Of a stretch of 64,000 bases of DNA, positions 2,238 to 61,124 are shown piece after piece. The translations under genes were made by a program, and so were the position numbers. This DNA is from Candidatus Zixiibacteriota bacterium (lineage in GTDB: Bacteria; Zixibacteria; MSB-5A5; CAIYYT01). The DNA lies in assembly GCA_020853795.1 (NCBI GenBank), contig JADYYF010000088.1, positions 12,820-76,819 of the forward strand. The letters run 5' to 3'. The notes under the pieces are model-generated. The model did not search any database, was not told the DNA's origin, and was given only the letters and a program-made list of their open reading frames with translations. How positions within the stretch are numbered: the stretch's first letter is position 1; each line of letters opens with the position of its first letter.

Positions 2238-2253
2238 AGCTATCCCGACGCGG

Positions 2254-3367: not shown

Positions 3368-3386
3368 GTGCTCCTCCTGTAGATTC

Positions 3387-5334: not shown

Positions 5335-5364
5335 AATTGCCTTCCTGTGCTTAAAGTCCCTTCC

Positions 5365-5793: not shown

Positions 5794-5807
5794 AGCTGAC
5801 TCCTGTC

Positions 5808-6086
5808 CTATGCGGTTACATCCAGACCGCCGGGATTCTCCTGTTCTTTGGGTTTCTCCTGCTTCTGTTCTTTCTGCTGCTGTTTCCGGTCGCGGTCGCG
5901 GTGAATGATCGCCTCATCGGTTTTTTCGGTCGGAACCGCCTGGCGCTGTTTTTGCACATTGTGCTGGTCGACGACCTGGGCAGCCTGACGCTGATCGGTG
6001 TCGGGTGCGACCTTCTGGAGCTGGTTGACGCGCTCGGCGAGCGGCGTCTTGGCCAGATTGTCAACGACCGCGATCGGTTGCACCAA
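5808..6086 (-). CDS. small highly charged hypothetical protein (92 aa) immediately downstream of fliA
   Basis: The ORF is K/E/Q-rich with no recognisable domain. It sits 16 nt after the fliA stop. Confidence 0.3.
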   Translation of the reverse strand: MVQPIAVVDNLAKTPLAERVNQLQKVAPDTDQRQAAQVVDQHNVQKQRQAVPTEKTDEAIIHRDRDRKQQQKEQKQEKPKEQENPGGLDVTA

Positions 6087-6899: not shown

Positions 6900-6902
6900 G
6901 AT

Positions 6903-7778
6903 CTATTTGCTTCTCTTAATTGTTAGGGCCTGAGCTATCAGTCCGGTATCGTCAGAGTCGATAGCGGTTTTTAGAGAATTCGCGTCGGCGAGGGCGTTCC
7001 AGAGGGCGGAAGCGCGCCGGGGCGACGTTATGTGATTTTCGCGTAAGGTCTTAGTCAGCTTGTCCAATTTTCTAACAGCGGGGTTGCCGGCGCCCGAAAG
7101 TGCCACGAGCGCGTGCGTTTCGGCGAACTGCCCCAGCAGCGGGCTTTCCTCGATGATTCCGAGCGGCGCTACAGCTGTTTGAAGAAACTTCTCGACCAGT
7201 TCAGTGAACTTGGCGGCAGCCTGGAGTCCCTCCGGCTCCGATTCGACTCGATTGACGACGAAGGCAGCGGTGAGACGCGGATTGAGTTGCAGCGCCTCCT
7301 TCAATTGCGTGTAGGCGTCGGCGACGGCGGGAATGCGTGGTGTCGTGACGACGACGCTGAGGTCGGAATAAGCCATCAGAGAAAGTGTCAACGCATCGAG
7401 GCTGGAGGAGGTGTCGAGAATGACGACATCGAAGAGTGCATCAAGCTCGCGGCAGGTGTGCAAACCGCGTTCGTTCAACATGACAAGGTCGCGGGTGGCG
7501 CCGGCTTCAGTACCGATGAGCCAGAGATTCGGCGCGATCTTGGTAACGGCGGCATTCAAGTCGGCCTCGCCGGCGAGAACGCGTTCGAAGCCACAGCGGA
7601 CGACAGCGTTGGTCATGACGGCGAGATCGCCGAGGCCGGTATCGGTGTCAAGCAGGAGCGTGCGGTAGCCGGATTCCGCCAATTTGGCGGCCAGGATCAC
7701 CGCCGTGGTCGATTTGCCGACGCCGCCTTTGCCGGAGCAGACGGTCAAGTAGAACGCGCGGGTCTTGGTCTCAGTCAT
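6903..7778 (-). CDS. flhG: MinD/ParA-family ATPase FlhG (FleN/YlxH)
   Basis: Deviant Walker A CSGKGGVGKST. Length 291 aa. It lies between flhF and fliA. Confidence 0.85.
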   Translation of the reverse strand: MTETKTRAFYLTVCSGKGGVGKSTTAVILAAKLAESGYRTLLLDTDTGLGDLAVMTNAVVRCGFERVLAGEADLNAAVTKIAPNLWLIGTEAGATRDLVMLNERGLHTCRELDALFDVVILDTSSSLDALTLSLMAYSDLSVVVTTPRIPAVADAYTQLKEALQLNPRLTAAFVVNRVESEPEGLQAAAKFTELVEKFLQTAVAPLGIIEESPLLGQFAETHALVALSGAGNPAVRKLDKLTKTLRENHITSPRRASALWNALADANSLKTAIDSDDTGLIAQALTIKRSK

Positions 7779-8790
7779 TGAGCCCTCCCGTGAGCTTGGC
7801 GAAGAAGTTCTCGACGGTGAATTGGGTCACGAGTGCGGTGGGCAGTCGCGAATCACTGATACAGAGGAGCGGCGGGTATTCGCCGACAACAAGGTTTAAC
7901 AGGGCACCGCAACCGGCGGCGGCGTCCAGTTGCGTGAAGGCGACAGCGTCAACACCGAGCGGGCGGACAAAATCGAGAAAATGGCGCATATGCCGCCAGC
8001 CGGTAGTCAGGGACAACACGGCAATGGTGAATCGCTGCGGAATCTCGGCCAGTTGCCGAGTCAGAGAATCTAAGGAATCCTGATCGCCGTTGACCAAGCC
8101 GGTAGTGTCGATCAGATGCCGCGACAGCTTGCCAGCGACAGATTGACGGGGCTCGACGGCGAGTTCGAGGATGTCGGCGAGGTTGCTGATTTCCTCGTCG
8201 GCGCCAGGACGGAAGTTATCAAGCGTTTCGAGAGTCACGCGTTCCTTGCGGTTGAACACGAAGTGGGTCGCATACTTGGCGAGCAGTGAACTCTTACCCG
8301 AGCCGCAGGGACCGATGAAGACGAGATTGGCGGCTTCGGCCGGCAGCTCGATAGCGGTCGGCATGAAAGCGGAAATGATGCGGATCAGGCTTTCATCGGA
8401 AATCTGCTCGGTGCGCTGGAGGCGGCGACAGATATCAAGTGCGAGGTTGGCTTCAACATCGTGGAGACGAAGCGCCAGATAGTAGTTGCGTACCTGGCCC
8501 TTGAGTAATTCGGGCAAGACGACGTCCAGCATTGCCGATTCGAGGCCCGGGTCCCCGAGGCGTGCGATTCCGGGGTTCGGTGCGGCCGGCACGGATGGAG
8601 TCATCGGTGACGGAGTGCGCAGTGGCCGAGCGGCAGGCGCGGCGTCCTTGGCGGCAGTCACCGAGAAGAGGCGCGTGCCGTTATCGCGGATGACGTCGGT
8701 CTTGAGAATGACCGCATCGGCGCCGAACTCACGGCGGACGAGATCGAGCGCGTCCGGAATCGTCGGGGCTTGGAAGTTCTTAATTAGCAT
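7771..8790 (-). CDS. flhF: flagellar biosynthesis GTPase FlhF (SRP-like)
   Basis: G1 motif GPCGSGKSS and the DTTG motif are present. It overlaps flhA and flhG by 8-11 nt. Confidence 0.85.
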   Translation of the reverse strand: MLIKNFQAPTIPDALDLVRREFGADAVILKTDVIRDNGTRLFSVTAAKDAAPAARPLRTPSPMTPSVPAAPNPGIARLGDPGLESAMLDVVLPELLKGQVRNYYLALRLHDVEANLALDICRRLQRTEQISDESLIRIISAFMPTAIELPAEAANLVFIGPCGSGKSSLLAKYATHFVFNRKERVTLETLDNFRPGADEEISNLADILELAVEPRQSVAGKLSRHLIDTTGLVNGDQDSLDSLTRQLAEIPQRFTIAVLSLTTGWRHMRHFLDFVRPLGVDAVAFTQLDAAAGCGALLNLVVGEYPPLLCISDSRLPTALVTQFTVENFFAKLTGGLND

Positions 8791-10837
8791 CGTATATGCT
8801 CACTGCTTCTTTTGAGAAAACTTCGATATGAGGGAGGATCTCCGAGTAGGAGAGCACGACAAGACCGTTGACGGCTCCCTGCAGGTAGCGCTGGAGTGCC
8901 ATGCGGACGTTGGGGCTGACGAGCAGCACCGGCGTGAGTCCTTCACGGGTCATGCGCTCGACCGACTTGGCGATGCGCTGGGTCAGTACTTCCCCGTTGT
9001 TCGGCGGGATGACGAGCATCAAACCCTGCTTGGTCGCCTGAACATTGTCGGCGAGGAACTTTTCGGTACGCGGTTCGAGGGTGAAGACGGTCATCTGATC
9101 GTTGTCGCCAGCATAGTTGCGCGTGATGCTGCGGCGCAGGGCCATGCGCACGTACTCCGTGAGCACGTCGGCATCCTTGGTCTGCTGGGCGTAATCGGCG
9201 AGCGCTTCGAGGATCGTCACCATATCGCGGATGCTGACGCGTTCGTTGAGCAGGTTCTGCAGGACTTTCTGCAAGGTCGCGAGTGGGACGATTTCCTCGA
9301 CGACGCCTTCTACAGCCGCCGGGAACTCGCGCTTGACGCGTTCGATGAGATTCTTGACATCCTGGCGGGTGAAGACTTCGGCCGCATGGGTCTTGATGAT
9401 CTCGGTCAGGTGTGTGGCCATAACGGCGGCCGGTTCGACGACGGTGTAACCCTTCATTTCGGCGAGTTCTTTGTAGTTTTGAATGATCCACTTGGCGGAC
9501 ATGCCGAAGGCCGGTTCTTTGGCGGCAAAGCCTTCGAGGTCGTCTTCGATGTACCCGGGATTGATGGCCAGCAGGTGGTCGACCATCAGCTCGAAGTTGG
9601 CGATCCGGTTACCTTTGAGTTTGACCTCATACAAATTCGGACGCAGTTGAACATTGTCGCGAATGCGAATCGGCGGCACGATAACGCCGAGTTCCTGAGC
9701 GATTTGGCGGCGCAGGCCGGAAATGCGGTCGAGCAGGTCGCCGCCTTGCTGGGTATCGACGAGCGGGATCAAGCCGTAACCGATTTCCAGCTCGAGGGTA
9801 TCTAGATGCAATGACTCTTCGGCCTGTTCCGAAGGGGTTTTCTTCTGCTCCGGCTCGATGCGCACTTCGGTGGACTTGGCTTCTTCGCGGCGCTTGATCG
9901 ATTGCATTGTGATGAAAGCGGCGGCACCGACGATCACGGAGAAGACGGTAAATGGGACAAACGGCATGCCGGGGACGACACCGAGCAGGAAGACGATACC
10001 GGAAGCGACAGCCAACGCCTTTGGCTGTAGCGTCATCTGCTGGGCCATTTCAGTGCCGAAGTTCGAATCACCAGCGGCGCGGGTGACGAGGATACCGGAG
10101 GCGGTGGCGACGATCAGCGCCGGGATCTGGGTGACCAGGCCATCGCCGACCGAAAGCAAGGTGTAACGGCGGAGCGCTTCGGAGATCGGCAGGCCTTCCT
10201 GCGCCATGCCGATGATGAAGCCGCCGATGACGTTGATCAGCGTAATGAGGATGCCAGCGACGGCATCGCCGCGGACAAATTTGGAGGCGCCGTCCATCGC
10301 ACCGTAGAAATCAGCTTCCTTGGTGATGTCGGCGCGACGCTTGCGGGCGTCGTCTTCCGAGATCAGGCCGGCGTTAAGGTCGGCGTCGATTGCCATCTGC
10401 TTACCCGGCATCGCATCCAAAGTAAAGCGCGCGGCGACTTCGGAGATGCGGCCAGCGCCCTTGGTGATAACGACAAACTGGATGATGACCAGGATGATGA
10501 AGATGATAAAGCCGACAACGTAATTGCCTTTGACCACGAAGTTGCCGAAGGAGTTGATGACCGAGCCGGCGTAGCCTTCGCCCAGGATCAGGCGAGTCGA
10601 GGCGACGTTGAGCGAGAGGCGAAAGAGTGTGACGACAAGGAGCATGCCCGGGAATACTGAGAATTCGAGCGGGCGCTTGATATAGAGCGTCGACAGCAGG
10701 ATCACCAGCGACAGCGAGATATTGGCGGCCAGCAGCAGGTCGAGGAACGGCGTCGGAATCGGGATAATCAGGACGGCAATGATGCCGACCACAGCGATGG
10801 CCAAGATAACGTCCGAGTGCTGCATGTACTTCGGCAT
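8780..10837 (-). CDS. flhA: flagellar export apparatus protein FlhA
   Basis: The 685-aa product has an N-terminal 8-TM domain (FHxxxDGASKFVRGDAVAG motif) and a large cytoplasmic C-domain. Confidence 0.95.
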   Translation of the reverse strand: MPKYMQHSDVILAIAVVGIIAVLIIPIPTPFLDLLLAANISLSLVILLSTLYIKRPLEFSVFPGMLLVVTLFRLSLNVASTRLILGEGYAGSVINSFGNFVVKGNYVVGFIIFIILVIIQFVVITKGAGRISEVAARFTLDAMPGKQMAIDADLNAGLISEDDARKRRADITKEADFYGAMDGASKFVRGDAVAGILITLINVIGGFIIGMAQEGLPISEALRRYTLLSVGDGLVTQIPALIVATASGILVTRAAGDSNFGTEMAQQMTLQPKALAVASGIVFLLGVVPGMPFVPFTVFSVIVGAAAFITMQSIKRREEAKSTEVRIEPEQKKTPSEQAEESLHLDTLELEIGYGLIPLVDTQQGGDLLDRISGLRRQIAQELGVIVPPIRIRDNVQLRPNLYEVKLKGNRIANFELMVDHLLAINPGYIEDDLEGFAAKEPAFGMSAKWIIQNYKELAEMKGYTVVEPAAVMATHLTEIIKTHAAEVFTRQDVKNLIERVKREFPAAVEGVVEEIVPLATLQKVLQNLLNERVSIRDMVTILEALADYAQQTKDADVLTEYVRMALRRSITRNYAGDNDQMTVFTLEPRTEKFLADNVQATKQGLMLVIPPNNGEVLTQRIAKSVERMTREGLTPVLLVSPNVRMALQRYLQGAVNGLVVLSYSEILPHIEVFSKEAVSIYDAN

Positions 10838-10840
10838 GGC

Positions 10841-11911
10841 CTATCTCCGCGACTTCCCTTTCAGGCTGTAGACGTAAGCGAGGATTTCGGCAACGGCCTT
10901 GTAGAGGTCAGCCGGAATTTGCATGCCGATTTCGACGGTCTTGAAGAGCGTGCGGGCAAGCGGCTTGTTTTCGATAATCGGGACGCCGGCTTCGGCCGCG
11001 ATTTTCTTGATGGCCTCTGCAATCAGGCGCTCGCCTTTGGCGATCACGGTCGGCGCATCCATGGCAGCGGTGTCGTATTTCAGTGCCACGGCAATATGGG
11101 TCGGGTTGGTGATGACGACGTCCGCCTTGGGTACTTCCTGCATCATGCGCTTGCGTGCCTGATCGCGCTGGATGGCACGGATGCGACCCTTGATCAGCGG
11201 ATTGCCTTCGGTGTGCTTCAGTTCTTCTTTGATGTCCTGAATCGACATCTTGAGACCCTTGATGTAATCCCACTTCTGATAGGCGTAGTCGAGGATCGCG
11301 ATGACGGCGAGCGCGAGCAGGATCTTGAACGAGACGCGAACCGCGATGGCGACCATCGACTTGCCGATTTCGCCGGTGGACATGTCGGTAAAGGCGGCCA
11401 TCAAGGGGACTTCCGCTCTGATGGCATAGAAGGCGATGACGGCGATAATGGTCAGCTTGATCAGGTCGCGGACGGCGGTGAAGACCGACTTCATACTGAC
11501 GAGATTCTTCATGCCCTTGATGATGTTGAGCTTTTCGAACTTGGGTTCGAGCGCCTGAGTCGAGAAGAGACTTCCGACTTGCACATACGAGACGCCGAGC
11601 GCCACGACGACGAGCAGGATGATCATCGGACCGACGATCTTGACCGAAATCCAGCCGACCTGACCGAGAAGGGCCGGAGCGGAATCGGCCGTGATCGAGA
11701 AGTGCGCCGAATTGGCGAAGAGCCAGGTGAACATTTCGCGGCTGGAGGCAGTCATCAGCGAGCCCAGCGCCATCACACCGAGCAAGCCGGTGAACATGAT
11801 GGCAATCGAGCTGAGCTCGGTGGAGCGTGCGACCTGCCCCTTTTCGCGGGCCTCCTTCAGCCGTTTAGGCGTCGGTTGTTCGGTTTTTTCCTGGAACGAT
11901 TCGTCCGCCAT
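10841..11911 (-). CDS. flhB: flagellar export apparatus protein FlhB
   Basis: An autocleavage NPTH motif (VVITNPTHIAVAL) follows the TM domain. Confidence 0.9.
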   Translation of the reverse strand: MADESFQEKTEQPTPKRLKEAREKGQVARSTELSSIAIMFTGLLGVMALGSLMTASSREMFTWLFANSAHFSITADSAPALLGQVGWISVKIVGPMIILLVVVALGVSYVQVGSLFSTQALEPKFEKLNIIKGMKNLVSMKSVFTAVRDLIKLTIIAVIAFYAIRAEVPLMAAFTDMSTGEIGKSMVAIAVRVSFKILLALAVIAILDYAYQKWDYIKGLKMSIQDIKEELKHTEGNPLIKGRIRAIQRDQARKRMMQEVPKADVVITNPTHIAVALKYDTAAMDAPTVIAKGERLIAEAIKKIAAEAGVPIIENKPLARTLFKTVEIGMQIPADLYKAVAEILAYVYSLKGKSRR

Positions 11912-11914
11912 GGC

Positions 11915-12706
11915 TTATCCTGCGAAACCTTTCGCAATCGAGAAGGCTTCGAGACTGATCTGGTTGAAGACTTTTGCGAACATGAAATTGAAGAGCGGCA
12001 GGCCGAGGGCAAGCATCAGCAGACCGACGCCGATTTTAACCTGGAAGCCGACGATCAGGATGTTCATCTGCGGCATGGTGCGGGCCACGATGCCGAGGCA
12101 GATATCGACGATGAAGAGTGTCACCAGCACCGGCGCCGCGATCTTGACACCGATGGCGAAGACCGCGCCGGAGAGGCGCAGTACCTGATCGAGCGCCAGC
12201 GGATTGAATTGCACGTGTCCGAGCGGCACGACCTTGTAGGACTCGAAGAGCGCTTGCAGGATCGTGTGATGACCGTCGATCAGGAAGAAGACCAGCGTCG
12301 AGACGATCATTTTGAGCTGGCCAATAATCGGGACATTTTCCGACGTGGTCGGGTCGATGACATTGACCAGCGCGTAGCCGATCTGATAACCGAGCAAACC
12401 GCCGCCGTATTGGACGCCGAGAAAAATCAATTGGAAGAGAAAGCCGATGATCAGGCCGAAGGCCAATTCGCGCAGGCCGAGCATCGTCAGCGGGATCAAG
12501 CCCGGATCAAGCTGAAGCTGCTGCGTTCCGACTAGCGGGAAGAGGAAGTACCCGAACAGCAGAGCCAGCATGATCTTGACCTGCGCGGGGACGTTGGCCT
12601 GGCCGAACACGGGGGCGGCAATGATCAGCCCGGCAACACGGAAGGTCGCCAGCAGAAAGACTGTAATGTTGTCAAGGGTTAGACCAAAGATTGCCTGAGT
12701 GTGCAC
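11915..12706 (-). CDS. fliR: flagellar export apparatus protein FliR
   Basis: Polytopic 263-aa protein in the conserved position after fliQ. The start codon is GTG. Confidence 0.85.
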   Translation of the reverse strand: MHTQAIFGLTLDNITVFLLATFRVAGLIIAAPVFGQANVPAQVKIMLALLFGYFLFPLVGTQQLQLDPGLIPLTMLGLRELAFGLIIGFLFQLIFLGVQYGGGLLGYQIGYALVNVIDPTTSENVPIIGQLKMIVSTLVFFLIDGHHTILQALFESYKVVPLGHVQFNPLALDQVLRLSGAVFAIGVKIAAPVLVTLFIVDICLGIVARTMPQMNILIVGFQVKIGVGLLMLALGLPLFNFMFAKVFNQISLEAFSIAKGFAG

Positions 12707-12860
12707 GAGTTAGATGTCTCCTCTTCGGCAGACCTTTAAGCAAGGCTTGTGCCGAAGGGGAACAGCGACCTAACTCATTGTGGTATAATAGACTAATTGG
12801 CAACCCAGCGAACTCCCGTCGCGAAGGTAGGAGTATTTTTCCAGCGGCGTGGAAAAAGAT

Positions 12861-13130
12861 TCAGCCGACCAAGGTCGGAATCTGCTCGAAAAGCCGGGTC
12901 GTGAAGCCCACTAACAGGTTGATAATCCACGGGAAAAAGACCAGAAGCGCCAGTCCGACGGCGATGATTTTCGGGACAAAAGTCAGAGTCATTTCGTGGA
13001 TTTGGGTGACGGCCTGAAAGATGGCAATCACCAGGCCGACGATCAGGCCGAGAATCAACATCGGCGCCGACACGGTCAGTGTGAGCAGAATGGCTTCCTT
13101 CCCTAACGCGATGACATATTGCGGCGTCAT
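12861..13130 (-). CDS. fliQ: flagellar export apparatus protein FliQ
   Basis: Two-TM protein of about 89 aa (MTPQYVIALGKEAILLTLTVSAPML...). The ATG was chosen 1-2 nt after the fliP stop. Confidence 0.85.
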   Translation of the reverse strand: MTPQYVIALGKEAILLTLTVSAPMLILGLIVGLVIAIFQAVTQIHEMTLTFVPKIIAVGLALLVFFPWIINLLVGFTTRLFEQIPTLVG

Positions 13131-13131
13131 G

Positions 13132-13890
13132 TTATCCTCCGGCGACGGCAAAACTTTCGAGCAGTGATTTGACGATCAGGTACCAGCCGTCCACCATCAC
13201 GAACAGAAGAATTTTGAACGGCAAAGCTACCAGAATGGGTGGTAGCATCATCATGCCCATTGACATCAAGACCGAGGCGACCACCATATCGATCACGAGA
13301 AACGGAATGAAGATGACGAAGGCGATCGTGAAGGAGGTGCGCAGTTCAGACAGGATGAAGCCGGGCACAACCACGTAGGTCGGGACGTCATTGATCGAGG
13401 CCGGTTTCTCGAGACCGGCGTATTTGACGAAGAGCGCGAGGTCTTTCTCGCGGGTTTGCTTGAGCATGAAGGCGCGCAGCGGTTCGACGCCGCGATCGTA
13501 GAGTTCCTTCTGACTGATTTCGCCCTTCAAGTAGGGCTGGAAGGCGGTCTGGTTAATCTGGTTGGCGACGGGCGACATCACGAAGATCGTCATCACCAAC
13601 GAGATGCCCATGATCAATTGCGAGGGCGGCAACTGGTTGGTGCCAAGTGCCTGGCGCAAGAACGACATGACGATGACGATGCGGATGAACGAGGTGGTCA
13701 TCACCAGAATTGACGGCGCCAGCGCCAGTACGGTCAGAAGCAGCAGAATCTGCAGCGTGGTGGACATCGTCTTGGTATCGTTGCCCTGGCCGAATTGAAT
13801 CGAGACCGACGGCAGCGCTTGGGCGAATGATCCGGCTGAAAGCAACAGCACGAGAGCCAGCGACAGAATGGCGATGGTCCGGGTGCTCAT
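13132..13890 (-). CDS. fliP: flagellar export apparatus protein FliP
   Basis: Signal-like N-terminus followed by the conserved FliP core (LTSFIRIVIVMSFLRQALG, GFKIGLLFVMVDG-like). Confidence 0.9.
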   Translation of the reverse strand: MSTRTIAILSLALVLLLSAGSFAQALPSVSIQFGQGNDTKTMSTTLQILLLLTVLALAPSILVMTTSFIRIVIVMSFLRQALGTNQLPPSQLIMGISLVMTIFVMSPVANQINQTAFQPYLKGEISQKELYDRGVEPLRAFMLKQTREKDLALFVKYAGLEKPASINDVPTYVVVPGFILSELRTSFTIAFVIFIPFLVIDMVVASVLMSMGMMMLPPILVALPFKILLFVMVDGWYLIVKSLLESFAVAGG

Positions 13891-14360
13891 AGCTTTACCT
13901 CGGATTCTTTAACAGCGGTACGCGGCATCAGGGTCTCTTTCGCCTGGCGCAGGAATTGGCTGAACTTGGAGTTCGGCGTGCTGGCGGCACCCAGCGGGCC
14001 GGTGACCGGCGGTGCGGGTAATTCGACGTCACACAACTTGTTGATTCCGGATTCGGTGGCACCGACGAGGATGTGCTTATCGCCAACCTTGACGACGTAG
14101 ATGGCCTGTTTCGGAGTGAGATGGCGGCGGTCGATGACTTTGATGAGGTCGCCGCCGGCGGGAGACTTCCCGACCGTATAGCGTTTCATCAGCCAGACCG
14201 AGGCGTAGATGATGATGATGATCAGCAGGAGCGCACCGGCCAGCTGCAGAAGCGTGGGGCCGATATCGCTGCCGAAATCCGGGGCCGGCTCTTCCTGAGC
14301 CAGGACGGAGGCACTGCCGAACAAGATCAGCGATCCGATGCTGAACAGTGTTCGTTTCAT
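13887..14360 (-). CDS. fliO: flagellar protein FliO/FliZ-like
   Basis: Small 157-aa protein with a single TM segment (LLLIIIIIYASVWLM), positioned between fliN and fliP as in Bacillus fla/che operons. Confidence 0.55.
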   Translation of the reverse strand: MKRTLFSIGSLILFGSASVLAQEEPAPDFGSDIGPTLLQLAGALLLIIIIIYASVWLMKRYTVGKSPAGGDLIKVIDRRHLTPKQAIYVVKVGDKHILVGATESGINKLCDVELPAPPVTGPLGAASTPNSKFSQFLRQAKETLMPRTAVKESEVKL

Positions 14361-14361
14361 A

Positions 14362-14898
14362 TTACAAGCTCTTGAGTCTGTCTTCCGGCGAGATCAGACT
14401 GGTTACGCGCAGTCCGAAATTCTCGTCGACAACTACGACTTCTCCTCTTGCGACGATTTTGTTGTTCACCAGCAAGTCGACCGGTTCGCCGGCGAGTTTG
14501 GTCAATTCGACGACCGAGCCGGAGCCGAGTTCGAGGATTTCCCGAATCGTCATCTCGGTGCGTCCGAGTTCGATCGAAACCGGCAGCTTGACATCCAGCA
14601 GGATGTCGATATTGCGGGGTTGGCCCACCGGCGCGGAGCGCGCGAAGCGGTCGAACTCGACGGACTGGACGGTAGCCGGCTGGGCCGTCGTGGCATCGTG
14701 AGCTTCGGCTCGCGCCAGTTCCTCGAGCATCTGCCGTTCGACCTCGTCATCGATCGAAGCGGGCGAGGCCAGTTGGTCGGCGGGGATCGCCGGCGGCGAT
14801 TGTTTAGCCGAGGGAGCGGCCTCCGGTCCGCCGGGGACACGGCCCGCGAGGTTGTCTTCCTCGCCGGGCGGGAGTCCGGTGTTGAGATTATCAGCCAT
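14362..14898 (-). CDS. fliN: flagellar motor switch protein FliN/FliY C-domain
   Basis: C-terminal SpoA/FliN domain (VSIELGRTEMTIREILELGSGSVVELTKLAGEPVDLLVNNKIVARGEVVVV). Confidence 0.85.
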   Translation of the reverse strand: MADNLNTGLPPGEEDNLAGRVPGGPEAAPSAKQSPPAIPADQLASPASIDDEVERQMLEELARAEAHDATTAQPATVQSVEFDRFARSAPVGQPRNIDILLDVKLPVSIELGRTEMTIREILELGSGSVVELTKLAGEPVDLLVNNKIVARGEVVVVDENFGLRVTSLISPEDRLKSL

Positions 14899-15889
14899 TT
14901 ATCTGCTCCTGTTCTTCCGTCGTCCCGACGACTTGAATTCCCATTTTCTTGCCGACAATACCGGGACGGGCCAAGAACTTCTTTCTTCCACGCACAGAGA
15001 TTTCCAACGGTTCGGCGATACGCTGATCGAGTTGGATGACGTCGCCGAGTTTGAGGTTCATGAAGTCGCGGACGGTCAGAGTAGCGGTTCCGAGCTGGGC
15101 GGCGACGTCTGCCGTGACGTCCTGCAGGTTGTTGATGTTCAACTGACGGCTTTCCTCGTAATCGCCCTTCTTGGACTGGTCAACCCAGGTGTTGCCGATC
15201 AGATCCTTCATGATCGGTTCGAGGGTGACGTAGGGATAGCAGATCGTCAGCAGCCCGGAATTACCGAGCATCTTAACCTGCATGCCGATGACGATTACGG
15301 TTTCGCCGGGGGGCACGATTTGCACGAATTGCGGGTTGGTTTCGAAGGAGTGCTGGCGCACTTGCAGCTTGATGACCGAGGTCCAGGTTCGCTCCAGCTC
15401 CTTGAACACATTACGAGCGATCTTGGACAAGACAGCGCGCTCGATACCGGTCAGTTCGCGCTCGGACTCGAGGATGCGTCCGACGCCGCCGAACATGCGA
15501 TCGATAAAGAGGAACGCGAGCGTCGGGTTGAAATCGATCAGGCAGCGACCTTCCAACGGCTCAAGGTTAATCGTGAAGACGTTGGAGGGGTTCACCAGCG
15601 ACATGATCAGTTCGGAGTAGGTGATCTGGTCGACGCTGACGAGTTCAATGTCGACCATGGCGCGCTGGATCGCCGACAGGCTGGAACCGAGATGGCCGGC
15701 GAAATTATCATGCAGGCTTTCCAGCGTCCGAATCTGGTCTTTGGAGACGCGATTCGGATGTTTGAAATCGTAGGCGACGATCGAGCGGGAGGCATCGTCG
15801 GCCGATTTCAATTTGGAGTCGATGTCCTCCGTCGACGAGACCGTCGAAAGGAGGGCATCAATTTCATCCTGTGACAGAATTTTCGCCAC
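14891..15889 (-). CDS. fliM: flagellar motor switch protein FliM
   Basis: N-terminal MAKILSQDEIDALL (the CheY-binding motif), a FliM middle domain and a C-terminal SpoA-like domain. Confidence 0.85.
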   Translation of the reverse strand: MAKILSQDEIDALLSTVSSTEDIDSKLKSADDASRSIVAYDFKHPNRVSKDQIRTLESLHDNFAGHLGSSLSAIQRAMVDIELVSVDQITYSELIMSLVNPSNVFTINLEPLEGRCLIDFNPTLAFLFIDRMFGGVGRILESERELTGIERAVLSKIARNVFKELERTWTSVIKLQVRQHSFETNPQFVQIVPPGETVIVIGMQVKMLGNSGLLTICYPYVTLEPIMKDLIGNTWVDQSKKGDYEESRQLNINNLQDVTADVAAQLGTATLTVRDFMNLKLGDVIQLDQRIAEPLEISVRGRKKFLARPGIVGKKMGIQVVGTTEEQEQING

Positions 15890-15904
15890 GTTCGGTCCTC
15901 GGTT

Positions 15905-16492
15905 TTACTGCAACACAAAGTCCGTCAGAAACACGGCATCGGCCTGGGCGGGCGCGACGTACCGGTTGACGACGGCCAGAATCTGCTTACGCATATCATT
16001 GCGCTGTTTGACGTCGGCCAGTTCCTCGACGGTCTTCGAGGAGAGGATCGTGATCAGGATGTCCTTGATCTTGACCTGCTTCTCCTTGAACACCGACAAC
16101 GCATCCTTGGCCACTTCGAAGCTGACGCTGCACGACAAGTAGCGCGTGCCGCCGGTTTCGGCGGGGTTGACGACGATGCTTTCGATCGTAAAGAATTCCG
16201 AGGCGCCGTTGCCTTCGCCCGAACCGTGTTCCCCGCCACGTTCCTCCGTTGCGGTTCCTTTGGCCGGCTCGACCTTGGCGGGCGCGGTTTGCTCGACTGC
16301 GGGCGCATCGCTGGCCAGCATCGGTTTGAGCACTTTCAGCGTGACGACGTAGGCCGCGACGATGGCGACCAAGCCGATGACGCCGAAGATGGCGACCTTG
16401 GTCAGAAGCGCGGTCAGGTTGGACGGGAGTTTCACCTTGGCCGCCGCCGGCTGATGCTCAGTCGCTTCGGTTTTTTCTTTGACATCCGGCAT
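15905..16492 (-). CDS. fliL: flagellar basal body-associated protein FliL
   Basis: Single N-terminal TM segment plus a periplasmic domain, in the conserved position upstream of fliM. Confidence 0.6.
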   Translation of the reverse strand: MPDVKEKTEATEHQPAAAKVKLPSNLTALLTKVAIFGVIGLVAIVAAYVVTLKVLKPMLASDAPAVEQTAPAKVEPAKGTATEERGGEHGSGEGNGASEFFTIESIVVNPAETGGTRYLSCSVSFEVAKDALSVFKEKQVKIKDILITILSSKTVEELADVKQRNDMRKQILAVVNRYVAPAQADAVFLTDFVLQ

Positions 16493-16494
16493 CG

Positions 16495-16716
16495 CTATAC
16501 TCTCTCGTTCTCACGGAAGGCGGCCGCCGGTGCGACGCTGTGGGTCGCGCGGCGGTACGCCACCGTTTTCTCGACAATTTCCTCTGTATTTTCCCGCACC
16601 ATGATCTTCTTGCCTGTCGTCAGGCTGATGATCGTGTCCGGGATCTCCTCAACGAACTCGATCAGGTCGGCGTTGACGACGATCTGCTGTCCGTTGAGTC
16701 GGGTGACCTTAATCAT
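16495..16716 (-). CDS. flbD: flagellar protein FlbD
   Basis: MIKVTRLNGQQIVVNADLIEFVEE is the hallmark FlbD N-terminus. It sits between flgE and fliL. Confidence 0.8.
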   Translation of the reverse strand: MIKVTRLNGQQIVVNADLIEFVEEIPDTIISLTTGKKIMVRENTEEIVEKTVAYRRATHSVAPAAAFRENERV

Positions 16717-16733
16717 GATGCCGCCTCAATCGC

Positions 16734-18656
16734 TTATCTCTTCAAGTTGACCAGATCATCGAGCATGTTGTCCGACGTCGTGATGACACGGGCGTTGGAC
16801 TGGAAGCCGCGCTGGGCGATGATCATGTTGGTGAATTCCTGGGCCAGATCGACGTTGGCGGATTCGAGCGCGCCGGAGGAGATCGTCGCGGAGACGGTCT
16901 CACCGGCCGTGCCTTCAATGCCCTCGCCGGAGTTGGCCGAGGTCTGATAAAGCGACTCGCCCGCCTTGATCAAGCCGGCCTCGTTGTTGAAGTCCGCAAG
17001 GGTGACCTGAGCGAGGTTGCGCGAGACGCCGTTGGTGAAAATGCCGATGATCAGTCCGGTCGGGTCAATGGAGATCTTGTCGAGGATGCCCATGCCGTAG
17101 CCGTCCTGATTGATGGCGGCCACGGTCTCGACGCCGGAGAAGCCGGTCAGACCATCGTAGGCGCCGGAGGTGCCGGCGAACAAGTCAATTTGCGCCAGTC
17201 CGGCGCCGTTATTCGGGTCAAACTGCAGGTTGGTCGCGCCGCCGTCATAAGCCCAGCGCAACAGCGAACCGTCGGGGTTGAAGGTCACGGTCCCGGAGCC
17301 ACCGGTCTGGATAGTCTCGCCGCCCTGCATTGTCACTTCCCAATACCACTTGTTCGGTTCATGGGACTTGATGAAGTTCGTCATCAGAGTATGAGTGCCG
17401 CCGAGCGAGTCATAGACAGTGAGCGAGGTGGCTTTCGACGTGTCGGCCGTGGTGATCGATGCGCTTCCGGCAATTAATCCGGCATCGCCGGTACTGGCCG
17501 TCACTCCGCCACCGCCCAAGCCGGTCACACCGGTCGCCAATCCGCTGCTGGAGGAGACGGAGATGCCGAGGTTGGTCGTCACGCTCGCGCCGCCGACGGA
17601 AGGTGTGAAGGTGTCAGTCGCGGCAAAAGTGTGATCAAGGCCGTTATTGACGCTGAACGCAGCTCCGGCCGCGGCGCCAAAGACGCGGTTGGCGATATCC
17701 CCGGCGACGGCCGTGTTGGTCACGACGTTATAGGTCGAGCCGGTCCCGGCCTTGGTGCGGGAAATCTCGACTTCCCCACCGACAATGCGAGCATCGACGC
17801 CGTCGATCAAGTCGATCGCAGCGACCAGCTCATTGATGGTCGAATTGAGGGTCAGGCCCGTAATTGTGATCGGTGTGGCGCCGTCGACGGTTAACGTCAG
17901 AGTCGGCGAGGTCACACCCAGCGTGGTCAGGGTCTCACTTCCGTCGAGAACATCGTTCGGGATGTTGTTGCCGACAGCGGTGGAAAAGGTGGCCTGGTTG
18001 CCGGTAACGGTGATAACATGCGTGCCGCCGGCGCCATCACGGGCAACGCCCGAGACCAACGACAGGTTGTTGGTGACCGGAGCGCCCTCCGTCAGGCTGG
18101 CATCGGAGCGGGTCGCCGAGGCGTCAAGGTTGTTACCGTATTCAACGCGCGAAGTCGGGAGCGCCGGATCCTGCTGGCCGAACGGCAGCTTGATATTGCC
18201 GACGGTGGCCGTCGACGGAATCTGCCCCGAGGCATCCGCCATCTTACCCTGCACGTACAGGCCATTGGCCGGATTCACGAGGAAGCTGTTGGCATCGAAG
18301 CCGAACGCTCCGGCACGGGTATAGAACTTGGAGTTGCCGTCGGAGAGAATGAAGAAGCCGTTGCCCTGGATCGCCATGTCGGTGATCTGCCCAGTCAGCT
18401 CAAGACCGCCCTGGGTGAACAGATTATCGATCGAGGCGACATTCATGCCGAGTCCGAGCTGGACCGGGTTGGTACCACCGGAGACGGCCGAGGGGCGACC
18501 GGCGCCGCGCAGGGTCTGCACCAGCGCTTCCTGGAAAATTGAACGGCCCGACTTGAAGCCGACCGTATTGATGTTCGAGATGTTGTTCCCGATGACGTTC
18601 ATCCGCACCTGATGATTTCTCAGGCCTGCGACACCGGCGAAGAGTGATGCTAACAT
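16734..18656 (-). CDS. flgE: flagellar hook protein FlgE (long form, about 640 aa)
   Basis: N-terminus MLASLFAGVAGLRNHQVRMNVIGNNISNINTVGFK and C-terminus ANVDLAQEFTNMIIAQRGFQSNARVITTSDNMLDDLVNL. The ATG was chosen with a GGAGG about 10 nt upstream. The track ORF starts at an upstream TTG. Confidence 0.9.
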   Translation of the reverse strand: MLASLFAGVAGLRNHQVRMNVIGNNISNINTVGFKSGRSIFQEALVQTLRGAGRPSAVSGGTNPVQLGLGMNVASIDNLFTQGGLELTGQITDMAIQGNGFFILSDGNSKFYTRAGAFGFDANSFLVNPANGLYVQGKMADASGQIPSTATVGNIKLPFGQQDPALPTSRVEYGNNLDASATRSDASLTEGAPVTNNLSLVSGVARDGAGGTHVITVTGNQATFSTAVGNNIPNDVLDGSETLTTLGVTSPTLTLTVDGATPITITGLTLNSTINELVAAIDLIDGVDARIVGGEVEISRTKAGTGSTYNVVTNTAVAGDIANRVFGAAAGAAFSVNNGLDHTFAATDTFTPSVGGASVTTNLGISVSSSSGLATGVTGLGGGGVTASTGDAGLIAGSASITTADTSKATSLTVYDSLGGTHTLMTNFIKSHEPNKWYWEVTMQGGETIQTGGSGTVTFNPDGSLLRWAYDGGATNLQFDPNNGAGLAQIDLFAGTSGAYDGLTGFSGVETVAAINQDGYGMGILDKISIDPTGLIIGIFTNGVSRNLAQVTLADFNNEAGLIKAGESLYQTSANSGEGIEGTAGETVSATISSGALESANVDLAQEFTNMIIAQRGFQSNARVITTSDNMLDDLVNLKR

Positions 18657-18717
18657 AGTTTCATAACCTCCATATCCAGGCTTCCTCAAAGGAGGTCCGG
18701 CCTGTACACATTTGTTT

Positions 18718-19065
18718 CTATCCTAAGACCACAGAATCGATATTCGTAAACACGCCATCCTTCATGCGCGAGGTGGCGATGGCTGTCAAGACCGTGCGCG
18801 ACGGCACGTTGACTAAAAGTGCGAGGTCGTCGAGCAGGACGACGGAATCGCGCGCGCCTTTGCTGGCGACGCGATCGACGGCATCCGCAAGACGGGACAT
18901 GCGATCGGGCGACATCTCGAGTTGGCGACGCTCGATGCGTTCGCTCAGGTGTTTGGAGAAAGTCAGTCCGTCGCCGTCCGCCGGTTGAAACCGAGAAACG
19001 GGGTTTGCGGCCGGTTGCGACGGGTTCGGACGAACTTGCGGAACGGCATTCAAGAATTCAGTCAT
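18718..19065 (-). CDS. flagellar operon protein (TIGR02530-like) between flgD and flgE
   Basis: 115-aa protein in the conserved slot. Call is by position and size only. Confidence 0.5.
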   Translation of the reverse strand: MTEFLNAVPQVRPNPSQPAANPVSRFQPADGDGLTFSKHLSERIERRQLEMSPDRMSRLADAVDRVASKGARDSVVLLDDLALLVNVPSRTVLTAIATSRMKDGVFTNIDSVVLG

Positions 19066-19068
19066 CGT

Positions 19069-19746
19069 CTATCCTCCTGCCACGTGGCGAACAAGCGCCA
19101 GCGGAATCATGCCGCCATCGATCAGCAGGAAGGCCTGGCCGTCGACATACTCGACGCCTTCGACCACACCGCGGGTGAAGCTTGAGGCCGGGACCGACTG
19201 GCCCTTGGCATCGCGCAGATCGACGCGGAAGCCGTAATTGCCCGTGGCCAATTCGTTGCCGTTGGCATCGCGGCCGTTCCAGGCGATGCTGTGCTCGCCG
19301 GGACCGAGTTGAGAGACCGACAAGGTGCGGACGACTTCGCCAGCATCGTTGTAAATCGTGATGGTGCCGTTGAGGGAGAAGACACCGGTCGAGAAGGTGA
19401 TCGGGCTGACGGTCTCGTCGCCGACAGTCGTGACGCTGGCGTCAGCCGTGATCGTTTTGCCGATCAGCGAGGTGGCCATCGTGTTATTGATGGTCTGCGA
19501 CAGAAGCATGTTCCACTGCGTGTTCTGCGACAGCAGATCGTTCATGTTCTGCAGTTGCTCGAGCGACGAGAATTGGGTCATCTGTCCGATGAACTCCGCG
19601 TCGTTCATTGGCTCGAGCGGATTCTGGTACTTCATCTGCGCCGTCAGCATCTTCAGAAAGTCCTCCTTGCCAAGGGTCTCTTTCTTGGTAGAGGTCGATT
19701 CCGTCACTTGCGGCTGCAGGATCGAGCTGACTGATTGCGGTTCCAT
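19069..19746 (-). CDS. flgD: flagellar hook capping/assembly protein FlgD
   Basis: FlgD N-domain (DFLKMLTAQMKYQNPLEPMNDAEFIGQMTQFSSLEQL) and a C-terminal Ig-like domain (GEHSIAWNGRDANGNELATGNYGF). Confidence 0.8.
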   Translation of the reverse strand: MEPQSVSSILQPQVTESTSTKKETLGKEDFLKMLTAQMKYQNPLEPMNDAEFIGQMTQFSSLEQLQNMNDLLSQNTQWNMLLSQTINNTMATSLIGKTITADASVTTVGDETVSPITFSTGVFSLNGTITIYNDAGEVVRTLSVSQLGPGEHSIAWNGRDANGNELATGNYGFRVDLRDAKGQSVPASSFTRGVVEGVEYVDGQAFLLIDGGMIPLALVRHVAGG

Positions 19747-19753
19747 GGCTATC

Positions 19754-21328
19754 TCACGCTAACAGGTTGAGTCCATTGACTAAGGCCGTTAGACCCGTCG
19801 TCACGGTCACGGCGGCCGGGCTTTCGGCAACCGCTGCCGGAACGAATTGGCGGCGTGGCTGCCGGGGTTGGCGCGCAAACGCCTGCGAATGCCGCGACAG
19901 GGCATCCTCGCTGACGATAACTTCGATTTGATTCAGCTTGAGCCCGGCGCGTTCAAAGCTCTCGCGCAGCTGCGGCAGGTTGGCCTCAACCAGGCGGCGG
20001 GCATCGTCACTGGAGGTCTCCAGTCGCGCCGAGGTCTCATGCGGCGTCGTAACGAGGCGCACTTTGACGGTTCCGAGGTGCTCCGGTTGGAGTTGCAGCT
20101 TAATCTCGCCGCGCTTGATCAGAGTCTCGATCTGGACGCGCTTGAGCGAAACGTGGACGCGTTCGGTGTCAGGAATCTCGATGGCCGCGGTATTCGGCAC
20201 TTGGCCGTGATCTTCGGCCGGCAATTTGTCGACTGCGGCAAAGGTGCTCTGTCCGGTGCCGGCACTGATAGTCAGATCTTGTTTAAGCATCTCAGATGGA
20301 CGGATCGCTTCGGCGCCGGGCAATGGTTTCGGGCTTGTCTCGGACAGCGGTGCCGGCGCGGGCTTCGCAACGGCCGCCTCTGCCCCCACTTCGGAAGTTG
20401 GCGGTTGCGATCCAACTGCAGCGACAGGCTGTGCCGATGGTTGACCGCTCTTCTTGTGACCGGCAAGGTTGACCACCGAATGACCACGCAACGGCAGCGG
20501 CAGGGCCGCAAACTCCGCGACCGTCGGCTGAATAGTGGGATCTTTTGCCGCGGTTTCCGGCTGAAGTTTGACTGTGGCGTCGGTCTGCAGATGTCCATCC
20601 AGCGACTGGATGCGAAGCTCGGGAAATAGCTGCTGCAACTGGGATTTCAGTTGATGAACAGCCGCCGGCTGCGAGCCTGCAACGAACCGACTGACGCGAG
20701 GTGCGTCAGACAATGCCACGTCGGTGTCGGCAATTGGAGTCGGCTGAGTTAATGCGGCCACCAATTCTTGAGCGGTGATCGGCTGATCAACTTTGACATC
20801 AACGGTTGATGGCAGCGTAACAGCGACCGCGGTCTGGCTCGGGACTTGCGCGGGCTGACCGAGCATTTCGACGAGCATCACGGCCAACTGCTGATCGGCA
20901 AGCGGAGTCACGATATCAGCAACGACTGCGTCTTGATGCGCCGGTCGATTCGACTGATTTGGCAATGCTTGCGGCGAGGTGATGGCGGTGTTCGGATCCA
21001 ACAACGCAAGGAGCGGCGGACCGGTATAAACCGTGGCATTGACGGCCGCGGGTTCAGACTGAGGAACCGCCAAGTGTGGTTGCGGGTCGACTTCTGTTGG
21101 CGAATGCGGCTGTTCCGATGCGACGGTTTGCTCGGCAAGTGCCGGAGTCAGCAGCGCAGCGGTCGTGCCGTCGGCATTGACCGGGACGATTGACTGCTGC
21201 ACGGCAGCGTTCAAGGCCAACGCGAACAAGCCTGCGGGAACGACACCGGCCTGCGCTGACGGCGCTGCCGCGTTGGCTGCATTCGCAGTGGCGGGGACCT
21301 GAGTCAATATGTCGAGCAGCGGATTCAT
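19754..21328 (-). CDS. fliK: flagellar hook-length control protein FliK
   Basis: Pro/Ala/Gln-rich central region and a C-terminal Flg_hook domain (LQPEHLGTVKVRLVTTPHETSARLETSSDDARRLVEANLPQLRESFERAGLKL). Confidence 0.7.
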   Translation of the reverse strand: MNPLLDILTQVPATANAANAAAPSAQAGVVPAGLFALALNAAVQQSIVPVNADGTTAALLTPALAEQTVASEQPHSPTEVDPQPHLAVPQSEPAAVNATVYTGPPLLALLDPNTAITSPQALPNQSNRPAHQDAVVADIVTPLADQQLAVMLVEMLGQPAQVPSQTAVAVTLPSTVDVKVDQPITAQELVAALTQPTPIADTDVALSDAPRVSRFVAGSQPAAVHQLKSQLQQLFPELRIQSLDGHLQTDATVKLQPETAAKDPTIQPTVAEFAALPLPLRGHSVVNLAGHKKSGQPSAQPVAAVGSQPPTSEVGAEAAVAKPAPAPLSETSPKPLPGAEAIRPSEMLKQDLTISAGTGQSTFAAVDKLPAEDHGQVPNTAAIEIPDTERVHVSLKRVQIETLIKRGEIKLQLQPEHLGTVKVRLVTTPHETSARLETSSDDARRLVEANLPQLRESFERAGLKLNQIEVIVSEDALSRHSQAFARQPRQPRRQFVPAAVAESPAAVTVTTGLTALVNGLNLLA

Positions 21329-21335
21329 TTCGTCC

Positions 21336-22016
21336 TTAGTTGTTCATCGAAATCAGATACTGGGTGATGCGCGCGGCGCGCTCCGGCGGGAGCTGGCCGA
21401 GCACTTCGGAAGCCTTCTGCTTCTTCATCTTGCTGATCAGAATGCTGACCTGAGCATCTTCAAGGTTGGCCAGGATCGGAACGAGCGCGGAAGTTTCCAT
21501 GCCTTCATAGAGCTTGGCCATCTGGGTGATATTGCCTTCTTCCGCAGCTTTCTTGCGGTCAAGCAGGGCTTCGACCTGGGCTTTGAGTTGTTCCAGTTGT
21601 TTGCGTTCAACGTTGAGTTGAGCCACCTTGCGGTCGATTTCCTGCCGCTGTTCTTCGTACCACTGGACTTTCTGGAGCGAATCGCGCACCATCGCCGAGT
21701 CGGTGACTTGCGTTTCAGTGGAACCGCCGTCGAAGCCGTCAAACAGCTCGTCGTAGGCGCTGGCGCCGGTGGATTCTTCGGAGTTGTCCGGTTCCTGAGC
21801 CACAGAGTCGCTTGCGGTCGCCGCCGGTTCGATTGATTGCGCTGACGGTTTGACGTTGGTGGAACTGAAGACCCCGAATTTCAGGGAGAAAATGATCACA
21901 AACACGACAAAGACGATCAGTCCGCCGGCGATCGGCGCCAGATGCGACTTGCCGCCGGCTTTGGCCTTTGGTGTCGGCTCGGCTTGCGGTGTTTGTTCTT
22001 GTTCTTTTTCCGGCAT
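21336..22016 (-). CDS. MotE/FlbB/YlxF-like flagellar protein (MgtE-N-like domain); first gene of the operon
   Basis: TM-anchored protein with a coiled-coil region and a C-terminal MgtE_N-like helical domain (LVPILANLEDAQVSILISKMKKQKASEVLGQL). It occupies the same position as ylxF/flbB in other fla operons. An AGGAG lies 6 nt upstream of the ATG. Confidence 0.55.
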   Translation of the reverse strand: MPEKEQEQTPQAEPTPKAKAGGKSHLAPIAGGLIVFVVFVIIFSLKFGVFSSTNVKPSAQSIEPAATASDSVAQEPDNSEESTGASAYDELFDGFDGGSTETQVTDSAMVRDSLQKVQWYEEQRQEIDRKVAQLNVERKQLEQLKAQVEALLDRKKAAEEGNITQMAKLYEGMETSALVPILANLEDAQVSILISKMKKQKASEVLGQLPPERAARITQYLISMNN

Positions 22017-22063
22017 GTCTGCTCCTATTCAAGCGACAAATGCTTTTCTGCCGCTCTGCGAAG

Positions 22064-22080
22064 ATGCAAGGGGGATGCCA
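22064..22080 (-). promoter_or_regulatory. sigma-54 (-24/-12) promoter driving the flagellar operon
   Basis: The minus strand reads TTGGCATCCCCCTTGCAT. This matches the TGGCAC-N5-TTGCA consensus with perfect GG/GC spacing. It sits about 45 nt upstream of the MotE-like ATG, and an AGGAG RBS follows. Confidence 0.6.
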
Positions 22081-22236
22081 AACCTGCCGGCGAACTCGCA
22101 AGTTTCTGCAAGGTAAGGCTTTAGTCGTGAGCGTCGATTGCGAGAGATGAGATGAAAGGCGACGGCGAGGAAAGATTTTCTTGGTGGAAGGAACTAAGTG
22201 TCGAGCGCCGTGGACGACCGAATTCGTAGCGGCAGA

Positions 22237-23817: not shown

Positions 23818-23877
23818 TGGGGTGACGGTACAGGAAACGAAGCCGCTTGTCCAATACAAATTGCGGCAGCTGTTTTG

Positions 23878-23916
23878 GGGCAAAAGAAAGCGGGCGCGAT
23901 GTCGATCGCGCCCGCT
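23878..23916 (-). terminator. rho-independent terminator after rpsA
   Basis: 12-bp GC stem AGCGGGCGCGAT/ATCGCGCCCGCT with a 4-nt loop, followed on the minus strand by TTCTTTTG. Confidence 0.6.
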
Positions 23917-61039: not shown

Positions 61040-61124
61040 GCTGGTTACGACTGAATCTTGATCGGGAGAAGGATAACAGCTGGCGCCGGCGCCGCAAATC
61101 AAAAACTGGTGACGAGTCGCACAA

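Follow-up and report, generated by a model that had tools for sequence, protein, structure and literature searches.

In Vibrio cholerae and Pseudomonas aeruginosa, FlrA/FleQ and FlrBC/FleSR act together with sigma-54 and are followed by FliA (sigma-28); this hierarchy was reportedly set out by Prouty et al. in 2001. The class III/IV flagellar promoters of Caulobacter crescentus use sigma-54 and FlbD at ftr enhancers ~100 bp upstream, with a site for integration host factor (IHF) in between. In Campylobacter jejuni and Helicobacter pylori, neither fliA nor the export-gate genes are known to depend on sigma-54, and FlgR is not known to have a DNA-binding domain or to need an enhancer; the fla/che operon of Bacillus subtilis has sigma-A and sigma-D promoters upstream of flgB. 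FlgS/FlgR works with sigma-54 in Campylobacter jejuni and Helicobacter pylori (PMC12316311, PMC3162934); sigma-54 is nearly universal in diderm bacteria with lipopolysaccharide and correlates with motility (PMC3162934), and sigma-54 promoters have been predicted on flagellar genes in Thermodesulfobacteriota, Planctomycetia and Deferribacteres (PMC12316311). RBG-1, the earliest Zixibacteria genome to be described, was said to be non-flagellated (PMC3903129). No paper linking Zixibacteria to rpoN or sigma-54 was found in the literature searched, and neither PMC12316311 nor PMC3162934 mentions Zixibacteria or the other names searched from the Fibrobacteres-Chlorobi-Bacteroidetes (FCB) group. Here we describe a stretch of 64,000 nt (the window) from contig JADYYF010000088.1 of a metagenome-assembled genome of a Candidatus Zixiibacteriota bacterium, in which minus-strand flagellar genes are preceded by a candidate sigma-54 promoter, P1, and carry a second one, P2, between fliQ and fliR. 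From comparison of related sequences, it is highly probable that P1 is a genuine RpoN-dependent promoter whose activator would bind at an upstream palindrome, that the same module is repeated at P2, and that sigma-28 stands downstream of sigma-54 in this lineage. The elements of the two promoters are as follows.

22065..22080, minus strand, P1 core promoter TGGCAT-CCCCC-TTGCA (-24 GG at 22079-22078, -12 GC at 22067-22066)
22169..22189, minus strand, candidate enhancer of P1 (TTCC at 22189-22186, ACCA, then the 13-nt palindrome-like AGAAAATCTTTCC at 22181-22169)
22099..22108, minus strand, possible DNA-bending (IHF-type) site of P1, variant CAGAAACTTG, 28 nt upstream of the -24 box
22017..22054, minus strand, predicted 38-nt P1 leader, with the start placed at ~22054, 12 nt after the C of the -12 GC
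12739..12754, minus strand, P2 internal promoter core CGGCAC-AAGCC-TTGCT (GG at 12753-12752, GC at 12741-12740)
12830..12854, minus strand, candidate enhancer of P2 (TTCC at 12854-12851, N8, then GGAAAAATACTCC at 12842-12830)
12771..12780, minus strand, CAA-N4-TTR element of P2, CAATGAGTTA, 26 nt upstream of the -24 box

P1 corresponds to a motif that an earlier, sequence-only reading of the window had noted at 22040-22090 and had taken for a sigma-54 promoter at the head of the flagellar operon, about 45 nt before a MotE/FlbB-like start and followed by an AGGAG ribosome-binding site. The motif is real. TTGGCATCCCCCTTGCAT, the minus-strand reading of 22081..22064, contains TGGCAT-CCCCC-TTGCA with GG-N10-GC spaced exactly as in -24/-12 promoters and with a single mismatch to TGGCAC-N5-TTGCW (T for C at position 6). 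It lies inside the 220-nt gap between a 548-aa gene and the motE-like gene, upstream of the latter on the same strand; its 3′ end (22065) is 48 nt from the ATG at 22016, and AGGAG (22026-22022) is present between them, 5 nt ahead of the ATG. Three sites in the window, P1 among them, match TGGCAC-N5-TTGCW with at most one mismatch. The pattern TGGCAY-N5-TTGCW matched once over both strands of the window, against 0.09 expected from dinucleotide-preserving shuffles, and at least one match arose in 9 of 100 shuffles; the two-mismatch pattern gave 21 sites (28.9 expected), and the bare GG-N10-GC is uninformative, with 852 counted and 845 expected. As the looser two-mismatch pattern is not enriched, the single-sequence statistics for P1 are only suggestive, and conservation is the decisive evidence.

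A genome-collection scan with alignment of MotE-like proteins yielded 17 Zixibacteria loci with upstream sequence, which together with the window and two more divergent genomes (L120 and L121) made up a set of 20 genomes. TGGCA[CT]-N5-TTGCA is present 48-62 nt before the start codon in all 17 loci and in L120 and L121. The contact bases are kept in 20/20 genomes, while the N5 spacer takes at least nine forms (CCCCC, TACTC, TACTA, GCCCG, CACTA, CAGTA, TCTCC, TCTCT and ACCCC) and the flanks are near random. Invariant blocks in the alignment were confined to TTCC, two A/T positions, TGGCA, TTGCA, a GG in the leader, AGGA and ATG; the leader GG belongs to a conserved (C/A)GGC at 22053-22050. The first-gene protein of the 19 further orthologous loci is 43-96% identical to that of the window, and even L120 and L121, with MotE identities of 43-46%, retain the whole 30-kb synteny and the P1 motif. 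The order lipoprotein gene, gap, motE, fliK, flgD, flgE is common to all 17 loci, with rpsA upstream in most, and Bacillus and Sutcliffiella ylxF loci, examined as a negative control in which ylxF is operon-internal, were without the P1 motif. Conservation upstream of orthologous operons, which the sequence-only reading had named as a check, is therefore found in all 19 further loci. Being invariant in 20 genomes and coupled to a palindrome at a fixed distance, P1 very probably functions as a sigma-54-type promoter at the head of the flagellar cluster, as had been proposed.

The palindrome begins 101 nt upstream of the T of TGGCA in the window and is centred near -121 from the predicted start, within the usual enhancer range of sigma-54 promoters. 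At an offset of 101-102 nt, [G/A]GAA-N5-TTCC was found in 15/18 genomes; the remaining three carry GGAG-N5-TTCC, GGAA-N6-TTCC or TGAA-N5-TTCC at the same place, and the TTCC half-site is invariant. Across ten diverse genomes, the 88 columns between the palindrome and the -24 box contain no indels and have a mean pairwise identity of 0.33. Therefore, the spacing appears to be under selection and the sequence does not, as would be expected of two sites cooperating on the DNA helix, and the palindrome looks like a candidate site for an enhancer-binding protein. Where the window has CAGAAACTTG, relatives show CAA-N4-TTR, the strict form being at an offset of exactly 28 in 10/18 P1 sequences and at no other offset. 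This element resembles the core of the IHF consensus, and an A and a T seven columns apart are invariant in both the P1 and the P2 alignments. A putative bending protein acting here is possible, and is the least secure of the proposals made in this study.

A single promoter for the distal flagellar genes, as the earlier reading had it, does not describe this locus, since P2, with a matching palindrome, lies between fliQ and fliR. P2 has one mismatch to TGGCAC-N5-TTGCW and ranks second among the consensus matches of the window. It falls within the 154 nt that separate fliQ from fliR, its distance to the fliR GTG (12706) being 32 nt with GAGGAG between, and its transcription start is predicted at ~12728. 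The 13-mer GGAAAAATACTCC begins 88 nt upstream of its -24 box; no site of the window other than P1 and P2 joins a good -24/-12 match to the palindrome. Scanning metagenomes with FliQ returned 80 loci, in which the fliQ-fliR gap measured 153-260 nt in relatives with FliQ at least ~66% identical and in the more distant L061 and L083. NGGCA[CT]-N5-TTGC[A/T/C] was present in 14 metagenome loci, mostly 32-35 nt before fliR and with variable spacers, and most of the 14 have [G/A]GAA-N5-[T/C]TCC upstream at 87-90, 100, 108-110 or 130-131 nt. The invariant columns of the P2 alignment are AA..TCC, GGCA and TTGC. CAA-N4-TTR occurs at an offset of 25-27 in 6/14 sequences and also in L120, which carries all P2 elements. 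In ~40 more distant loci, in which fliQ and fliR abut, overlap or lie a few tens of nt apart, no P2 motif was found. No terminator was predicted after fliQ, and no sigma-70-like site was found in the fliQ-fliR gap. P2 is a second conserved sigma-54-type promoter, which would drive fliR-flhBAFG-fliA on its own.

Three variations at the fliQ-fliR boundary were observed besides. L053, L059, L062 and L114 have GGCAC-N5-TTGA(A/G) at the P2 position, a non-canonical -12 element instead of TTGC, and in this sub-lineage the upstream elements are TGAAC-TTTTT-TCC-like. In L120 (19479-19502), the called fliR ATG (19500) is only 5 nt past the P2 core and was probably mis-called, the true start being downstream. 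The fliQ-fliR gap of an unrelated metagenome contig (L110:1759-1993) consists of tandem ~10-nt units (CTACGAATCTACGGTTCTACG...) and contains no promoter.

These elements suggest the following mode of control. Transcription would start near 22054 at P1, which would head the second half of the flagellar genes (motE-like, fliK, flgD, flgE, flbD, fliLMNOPQ and onward). The sigma-54 holoenzyme at P1 would form a closed complex unable to open alone, so that opening would require an AAA+ enhancer-binding protein, whose gene would lie elsewhere in the genome. This activator would bind [G/A]GAA-N5-TTCC near -121 as a dimer or higher oligomer and reach P1 by DNA looping, which a bend at CAA-N4-TTR near -50 may help. 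As the three-part module is repeated at P2 in the lineage-specific 154-nt gap, this activator would have a further input into fliR, flhB, flhA, flhF, flhG and fliA. Because fliA is downstream of both promoters, sigma-28 would depend on sigma-54, the arrangement of a sigma-54 to sigma-28 cascade.

If the match at P1 were due to chance and functionless, transcription of the operon would come from a housekeeping-type promoter that had gone unrecognised, or would read through from rpsA and the lipoprotein gene. The shuffle counts and the lack of enrichment of looser matches given above agree with such a reading; in addition, no terminator is predicted between the HExxH-lipoprotein gene and P1, so that read-through from rpsA could reach the operon, and Zixibacteria may use a housekeeping promoter consensus other than the sigma-70-like pattern scored. 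However, all 11 specified bases are kept without change across 20 genomes in which the spacer, the flanks and the neighbouring protein (~33% identity) have diverged, and a second copy of the module precedes fliR. A sigma-70 promoter at P1 was rejected, the lone sigma-70-like site being weak (9/12) and overlapping the palindrome, with a -10-like hexamer that is not kept in relatives. We regard a chance match as a negligible prospect. Conservation alone does not name the binding factor, and the conserved TGGCA-N6-TTGCA might instead be the site of another protein (a repressor or a different sigma factor) or an RNA-level signal. The conserved positions are nevertheless those contacted by sigma-54 (GG and GC 10 nt apart in TGGCAY/TTGCW), with varying bases between them, and we know of no other factor with this specificity. 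Moreover, an enhancer-like element in the classic range of about -90 to -150 and a mid-way A/T element are present, and the module stands upstream of a ribosome-binding site at two separate operon heads. As for RNA, a structured leader after P1, suggested by the (C/A)GGC and by local hairpins, was rejected, its consensus fold having only 2 pairs at -0.29 kcal/mol with no covariation, and Rfam gave no match anywhere in the whole 64-kb window. A site for another factor or an RNA signal is accordingly very unlikely.

It may also be that P1 and P2 are real sigma-54 promoters and that the palindrome is the operator of a separate regulator, or that the activator acts from solution, as FlgR of Campylobacter and Helicobacter is reported to do without binding DNA. 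The degeneration of the left half-site in the most divergent genomes (L017, L120 and L121) fits this possibility, as does the different helical phase of the palindrome at P1 and P2 (101 and 88 nt). On the other hand, the P1 element is held at a fixed distance with no indels, the P2 element occurs at 88, ~109 and ~131 nt, positions some two helical turns apart, and within the window the element lies 88-101 nt upstream of both good -24/-12 sites. We consider it unlikely that the palindrome is anything other than an enhancer-binding-protein site. The difference in helical phase and the scope for read-through also weigh against RpoN-dependent control from the palindrome, and several further points are to be counted with them. 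The 20 genomes are related, and their 20 sequences do not equal 20 independent trials; the palindromes of the window are imperfect (AGAA..TTCC and GGAA..CTCC), as is its CAA-N4-TTR copy at P1 (CAG..TTG). No GAFTGA or RpoN-box was found in six frames of the window or in ~590 kb of related DNA, and no activator or rpoN gene was found in ~3-4.5 kb of sister-genome sequence beyond the left edge of the window.

Consistent with the earlier statement that the window encodes no enhancer-binding protein, Sigma54_activat had no match in the 51 window open reading frames (ORFs) scanned. The sister-genome contigs were reached through exact matches of the receiver and PilZ proteins of the cluster, the kinase protein having no exact match, and the neighbourhoods of the most distant homologs were fully syntenic and contained no activator. 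Instead of an activator of the FlrA/FleQ or FlrC/FleR type, the cluster encodes a PAS-GAF kinase and stand-alone receivers, with no Sigma54_activat domain. Tentatively, and with more doubt than confidence, we suggest that one enhancer-binding protein with a new specificity (GGAA-N5-TTCC) serves the two sigma-54 promoters of the structural flagellar half in flagellated Zixibacteria, P2 having arisen, as a separate activator-dependent checkpoint for the export-gate genes and sigma-28, from a lineage-specific insertion into a fliQ-fliR junction that is otherwise universal. If true, none of the model hierarchies has been described with such a regulatory design, and a search with the palindrome could lead to the activator and to the full regulon of an uncultured phylum.

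Among the systems introduced above, the closest to the three-part layout is Caulobacter class III/IV, the closest to the sigma-54 to sigma-28 order is that of Vibrio/Pseudomonas, and the closest to the gene order is the Bacillus fla/che operon. As in Caulobacter, an enhancer (here a candidate) at about -100 to -130, an A/T mid-element and a -24/-12 core are found at several flagellar operons; the enhancer sequence, hierarchy and gene order differ, and FlbD or IHF would be involved here only by analogy. As in Vibrio/Pseudomonas, the hook, switch and export genes would be driven by sigma-54 promoters, of which there is more than one, and flhF-flhG-fliA lies downstream of such a promoter, so that sigma-28 would depend on sigma-54. 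In contrast to these bacteria, the phylum is different, the gene order is Firmicute-like rather than proteobacterial, the boundary falls at fliQ/fliR rather than flhB/flhA, and no FlrA/FleQ or FlrC/FleR gene is present in or beside the cluster; the palindrome GGAA-N5-TTCC is also not known to resemble the FleQ site. C. jejuni and H. pylori likewise have hook genes (flgD, flgE, fliK) under sigma-54, and the flagellar cluster described here contains a histidine kinase; unlike in those species, the promoters here precede the export genes and fliA and are accompanied by a conserved enhancer-like palindrome. Of the Vibrio/Campylobacter-like hierarchy proposed in the sequence-only reading, the Vibrio part stands, with fliA downstream of sigma-54 promoters, and the Campylobacter part does not, Vibrio/Pseudomonas being the nearer comparison. 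Its Bacillus-like gene order was borne out, matching fla/che from ylxF to sigD (ylxF/motE, fliK, flgD, flgE, flbD, fliL, fliM, fliN/Y, fliO/Z, fliP, fliQ, fliR, flhB, flhA, flhF, flhG ... sigD/fliA), and this type of order was confirmed in part in Sutcliffiella and Bacillus loci (L020-L029). The single long operon that starts at flgB and has che genes before sigD was not found here: the flgB-fliJ half is not upstream, where rpsA and the lipoprotein gene stand instead, no che genes lie between flhG and fliA, the promoters are of the sigma-54 type, and a 154-nt promoter-bearing gap splits fliQ from fliR.

Control of flagellar genes by sigma-54 is textbook knowledge for Proteobacteria and a prediction for a small number of other phyla, to which Zixibacteria would now very probably be added. 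This is a known kind of control in a new phylum and not a new mechanism; it extends a known principle and overturns none. What is new is P2 with its palindrome, the lineage-specific features being the palindrome sequence and the promoter-bearing fliQ-fliR insertion. The result is a conservation-backed regulatory map for an uncultured lineage, showing two promoters, a possible bending site and a candidate enhancer motif whose spacing is fixed. Its predictions can be tested: transcription should begin at two given points, the motif should lead to the activator, and sigma-28 should be under sigma-54.

The genes were annotated with Pfam and NCBIfam, by ORF reading and from gene calls on sister contigs, and are arranged as follows.

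21336..22016, minus strand, first gene, MotE/YlxF/FlbB-like, 226 aa (weak family matches)
12861..21328, minus strand, block fliK to fliQ, all gaps ≤28 nt
19754-21328, minus strand, fliK (Pfam/NCBIfam)
19069-19746, minus strand, flgD (Pfam/NCBIfam)
18718-19065, minus strand, TIGR02530 flagellar gene (Pfam/NCBIfam)
16734-18689, minus strand, flgE (Pfam/NCBIfam)
16495-16716, minus strand, flbD (ORF reading; PF06289 on the ortholog)
15905-16492, minus strand, fliL (Pfam/NCBIfam)
14891-15889, minus strand, fliM (Pfam/NCBIfam)
14362-14898, minus strand, fliN (Pfam/NCBIfam)
13887-14360, minus strand, fliO (Pfam/NCBIfam)
13132-13890, minus strand, fliP (Pfam/NCBIfam)
12861-13130, minus strand, fliQ (ORF reading and gene calls on sister contigs)
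6102..12706, minus strand, block fliR to fliA, downstream of both P1 and P2 (Pfam)
11915-12706, minus strand, fliR (Pfam)
10841-11911, minus strand, flhB (Pfam)
8780-10837, minus strand, flhA (Pfam)
7771-8790, minus strand, flhF (Pfam)
6903-7778, minus strand, flhG (Pfam)
6102-6863, minus strand, fliA (FliA/WhiG family TIGR02479, 265 bits, above cut-off)
131..6083, minus strand, co-directional tail in the window, gaps ≤30 nt

The first gene scored 25.0 bits against Pfam MgtE_N, for which the cut-off is 25.9 bits, and 20 bits against the NCBIfam FlbB collar, also below cut-off; its homologs are labelled 'flagellar motility protein MotE' in JGI and stand under the NCBI names Candidatus Zixiibacteriota and candidate division Zixibacteria, the closest being 97% identical. 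An internal promoter in an apparent gap between flgE and fliL was rejected, the gap being filled by flbD. From fliR onward the gaps are ≤4 nt, and fliA is the sixth gene after P2. The predicted P1 start (~22054) and the fliA stop (6102) lie 15.9 kb apart, short of the more than 20 kb first estimated, and the unit does not terminate in fliA as had been supposed: co-directional genes go on for ~9 kb further, to FapA, making the cluster ~24.9 kb in total. How far co-transcription would extend along it is a matter of prediction. Within the window the tail comprises a 91-aa gene, a 142-aa gene, DUF2225, two PilZ (YcgR-like) genes, a 202-aa gene, the PAS-GAF histidine kinase, which is weakly similar to AtoS, ZraS and NtrB, and a stand-alone receiver; past the left edge, sister contigs (L031:10282-13244) continue this regulatory tail with a 121-aa gene, a CheB-like gene, REC and FapA, after which comes der.

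Upstream of the cluster, the minus strand carries the housekeeping genes HNH, trpS, scpA, scpB, rluB, cmk, plsC and rpsA, followed by the 548-aa gene. This ORF (22237-23883, minus strand) probably starts at the Met at residue 23 and has no Pfam or NCBIfam match; it encodes a lipoprotein signal (LLSAC, lipobox) and a HEYYHELGH zinc-peptidase motif, and separates rpsA from the flagellar operon in all Zixibacteria loci examined, with 31-55% identity across most loci (about 33%). It was rejected as a flagellar regulator, as the lipobox and HEYYHELGH point to a peptidase.

Elsewhere in the window, three loose sigma-54-like sites (38151 on the plus strand, 57818 and 31194 on the minus strand) were rejected, each having two mismatches and no palindrome 60-160 nt upstream. 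That at 38151-38166 (CGGCAC-N5-TTGCG) is 45 nt upstream of the gene for an unknown 658-aa protein, and that at 57818-57833 (TGGCAC-N5-CTGCG) is 66 nt upstream of a DUF6055/dockerin protein gene. On an unclassified contig of a metagenome-assembled genome, TGGCATGCGTATTGCT (L030:1332-1347, plus strand), ~370 nt downstream of a distant MotE-like gene, may represent a further sigma-54 promoter, belonging to a different lineage. Sigma-28-like patterns with ≤2 mismatches number 7 in the window, against 2.8 expected. The best of them, TAAA-N15-GTCGATAA at 61803-61829 on the minus strand, has one mismatch and is located just upstream of a minus-strand ORF (61125-61796), near a LuxR-type gene (60725-61411). 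The region 41506-63833 encodes large secreted proteins with C-terminal sorting domains of the type IX secretion system, dockerin, cohesin, PKD and Ig repeats, DUF6055 and an M6 peptidase, as well as CsgG/TPR lipoproteins and a Ser/Thr kinase.

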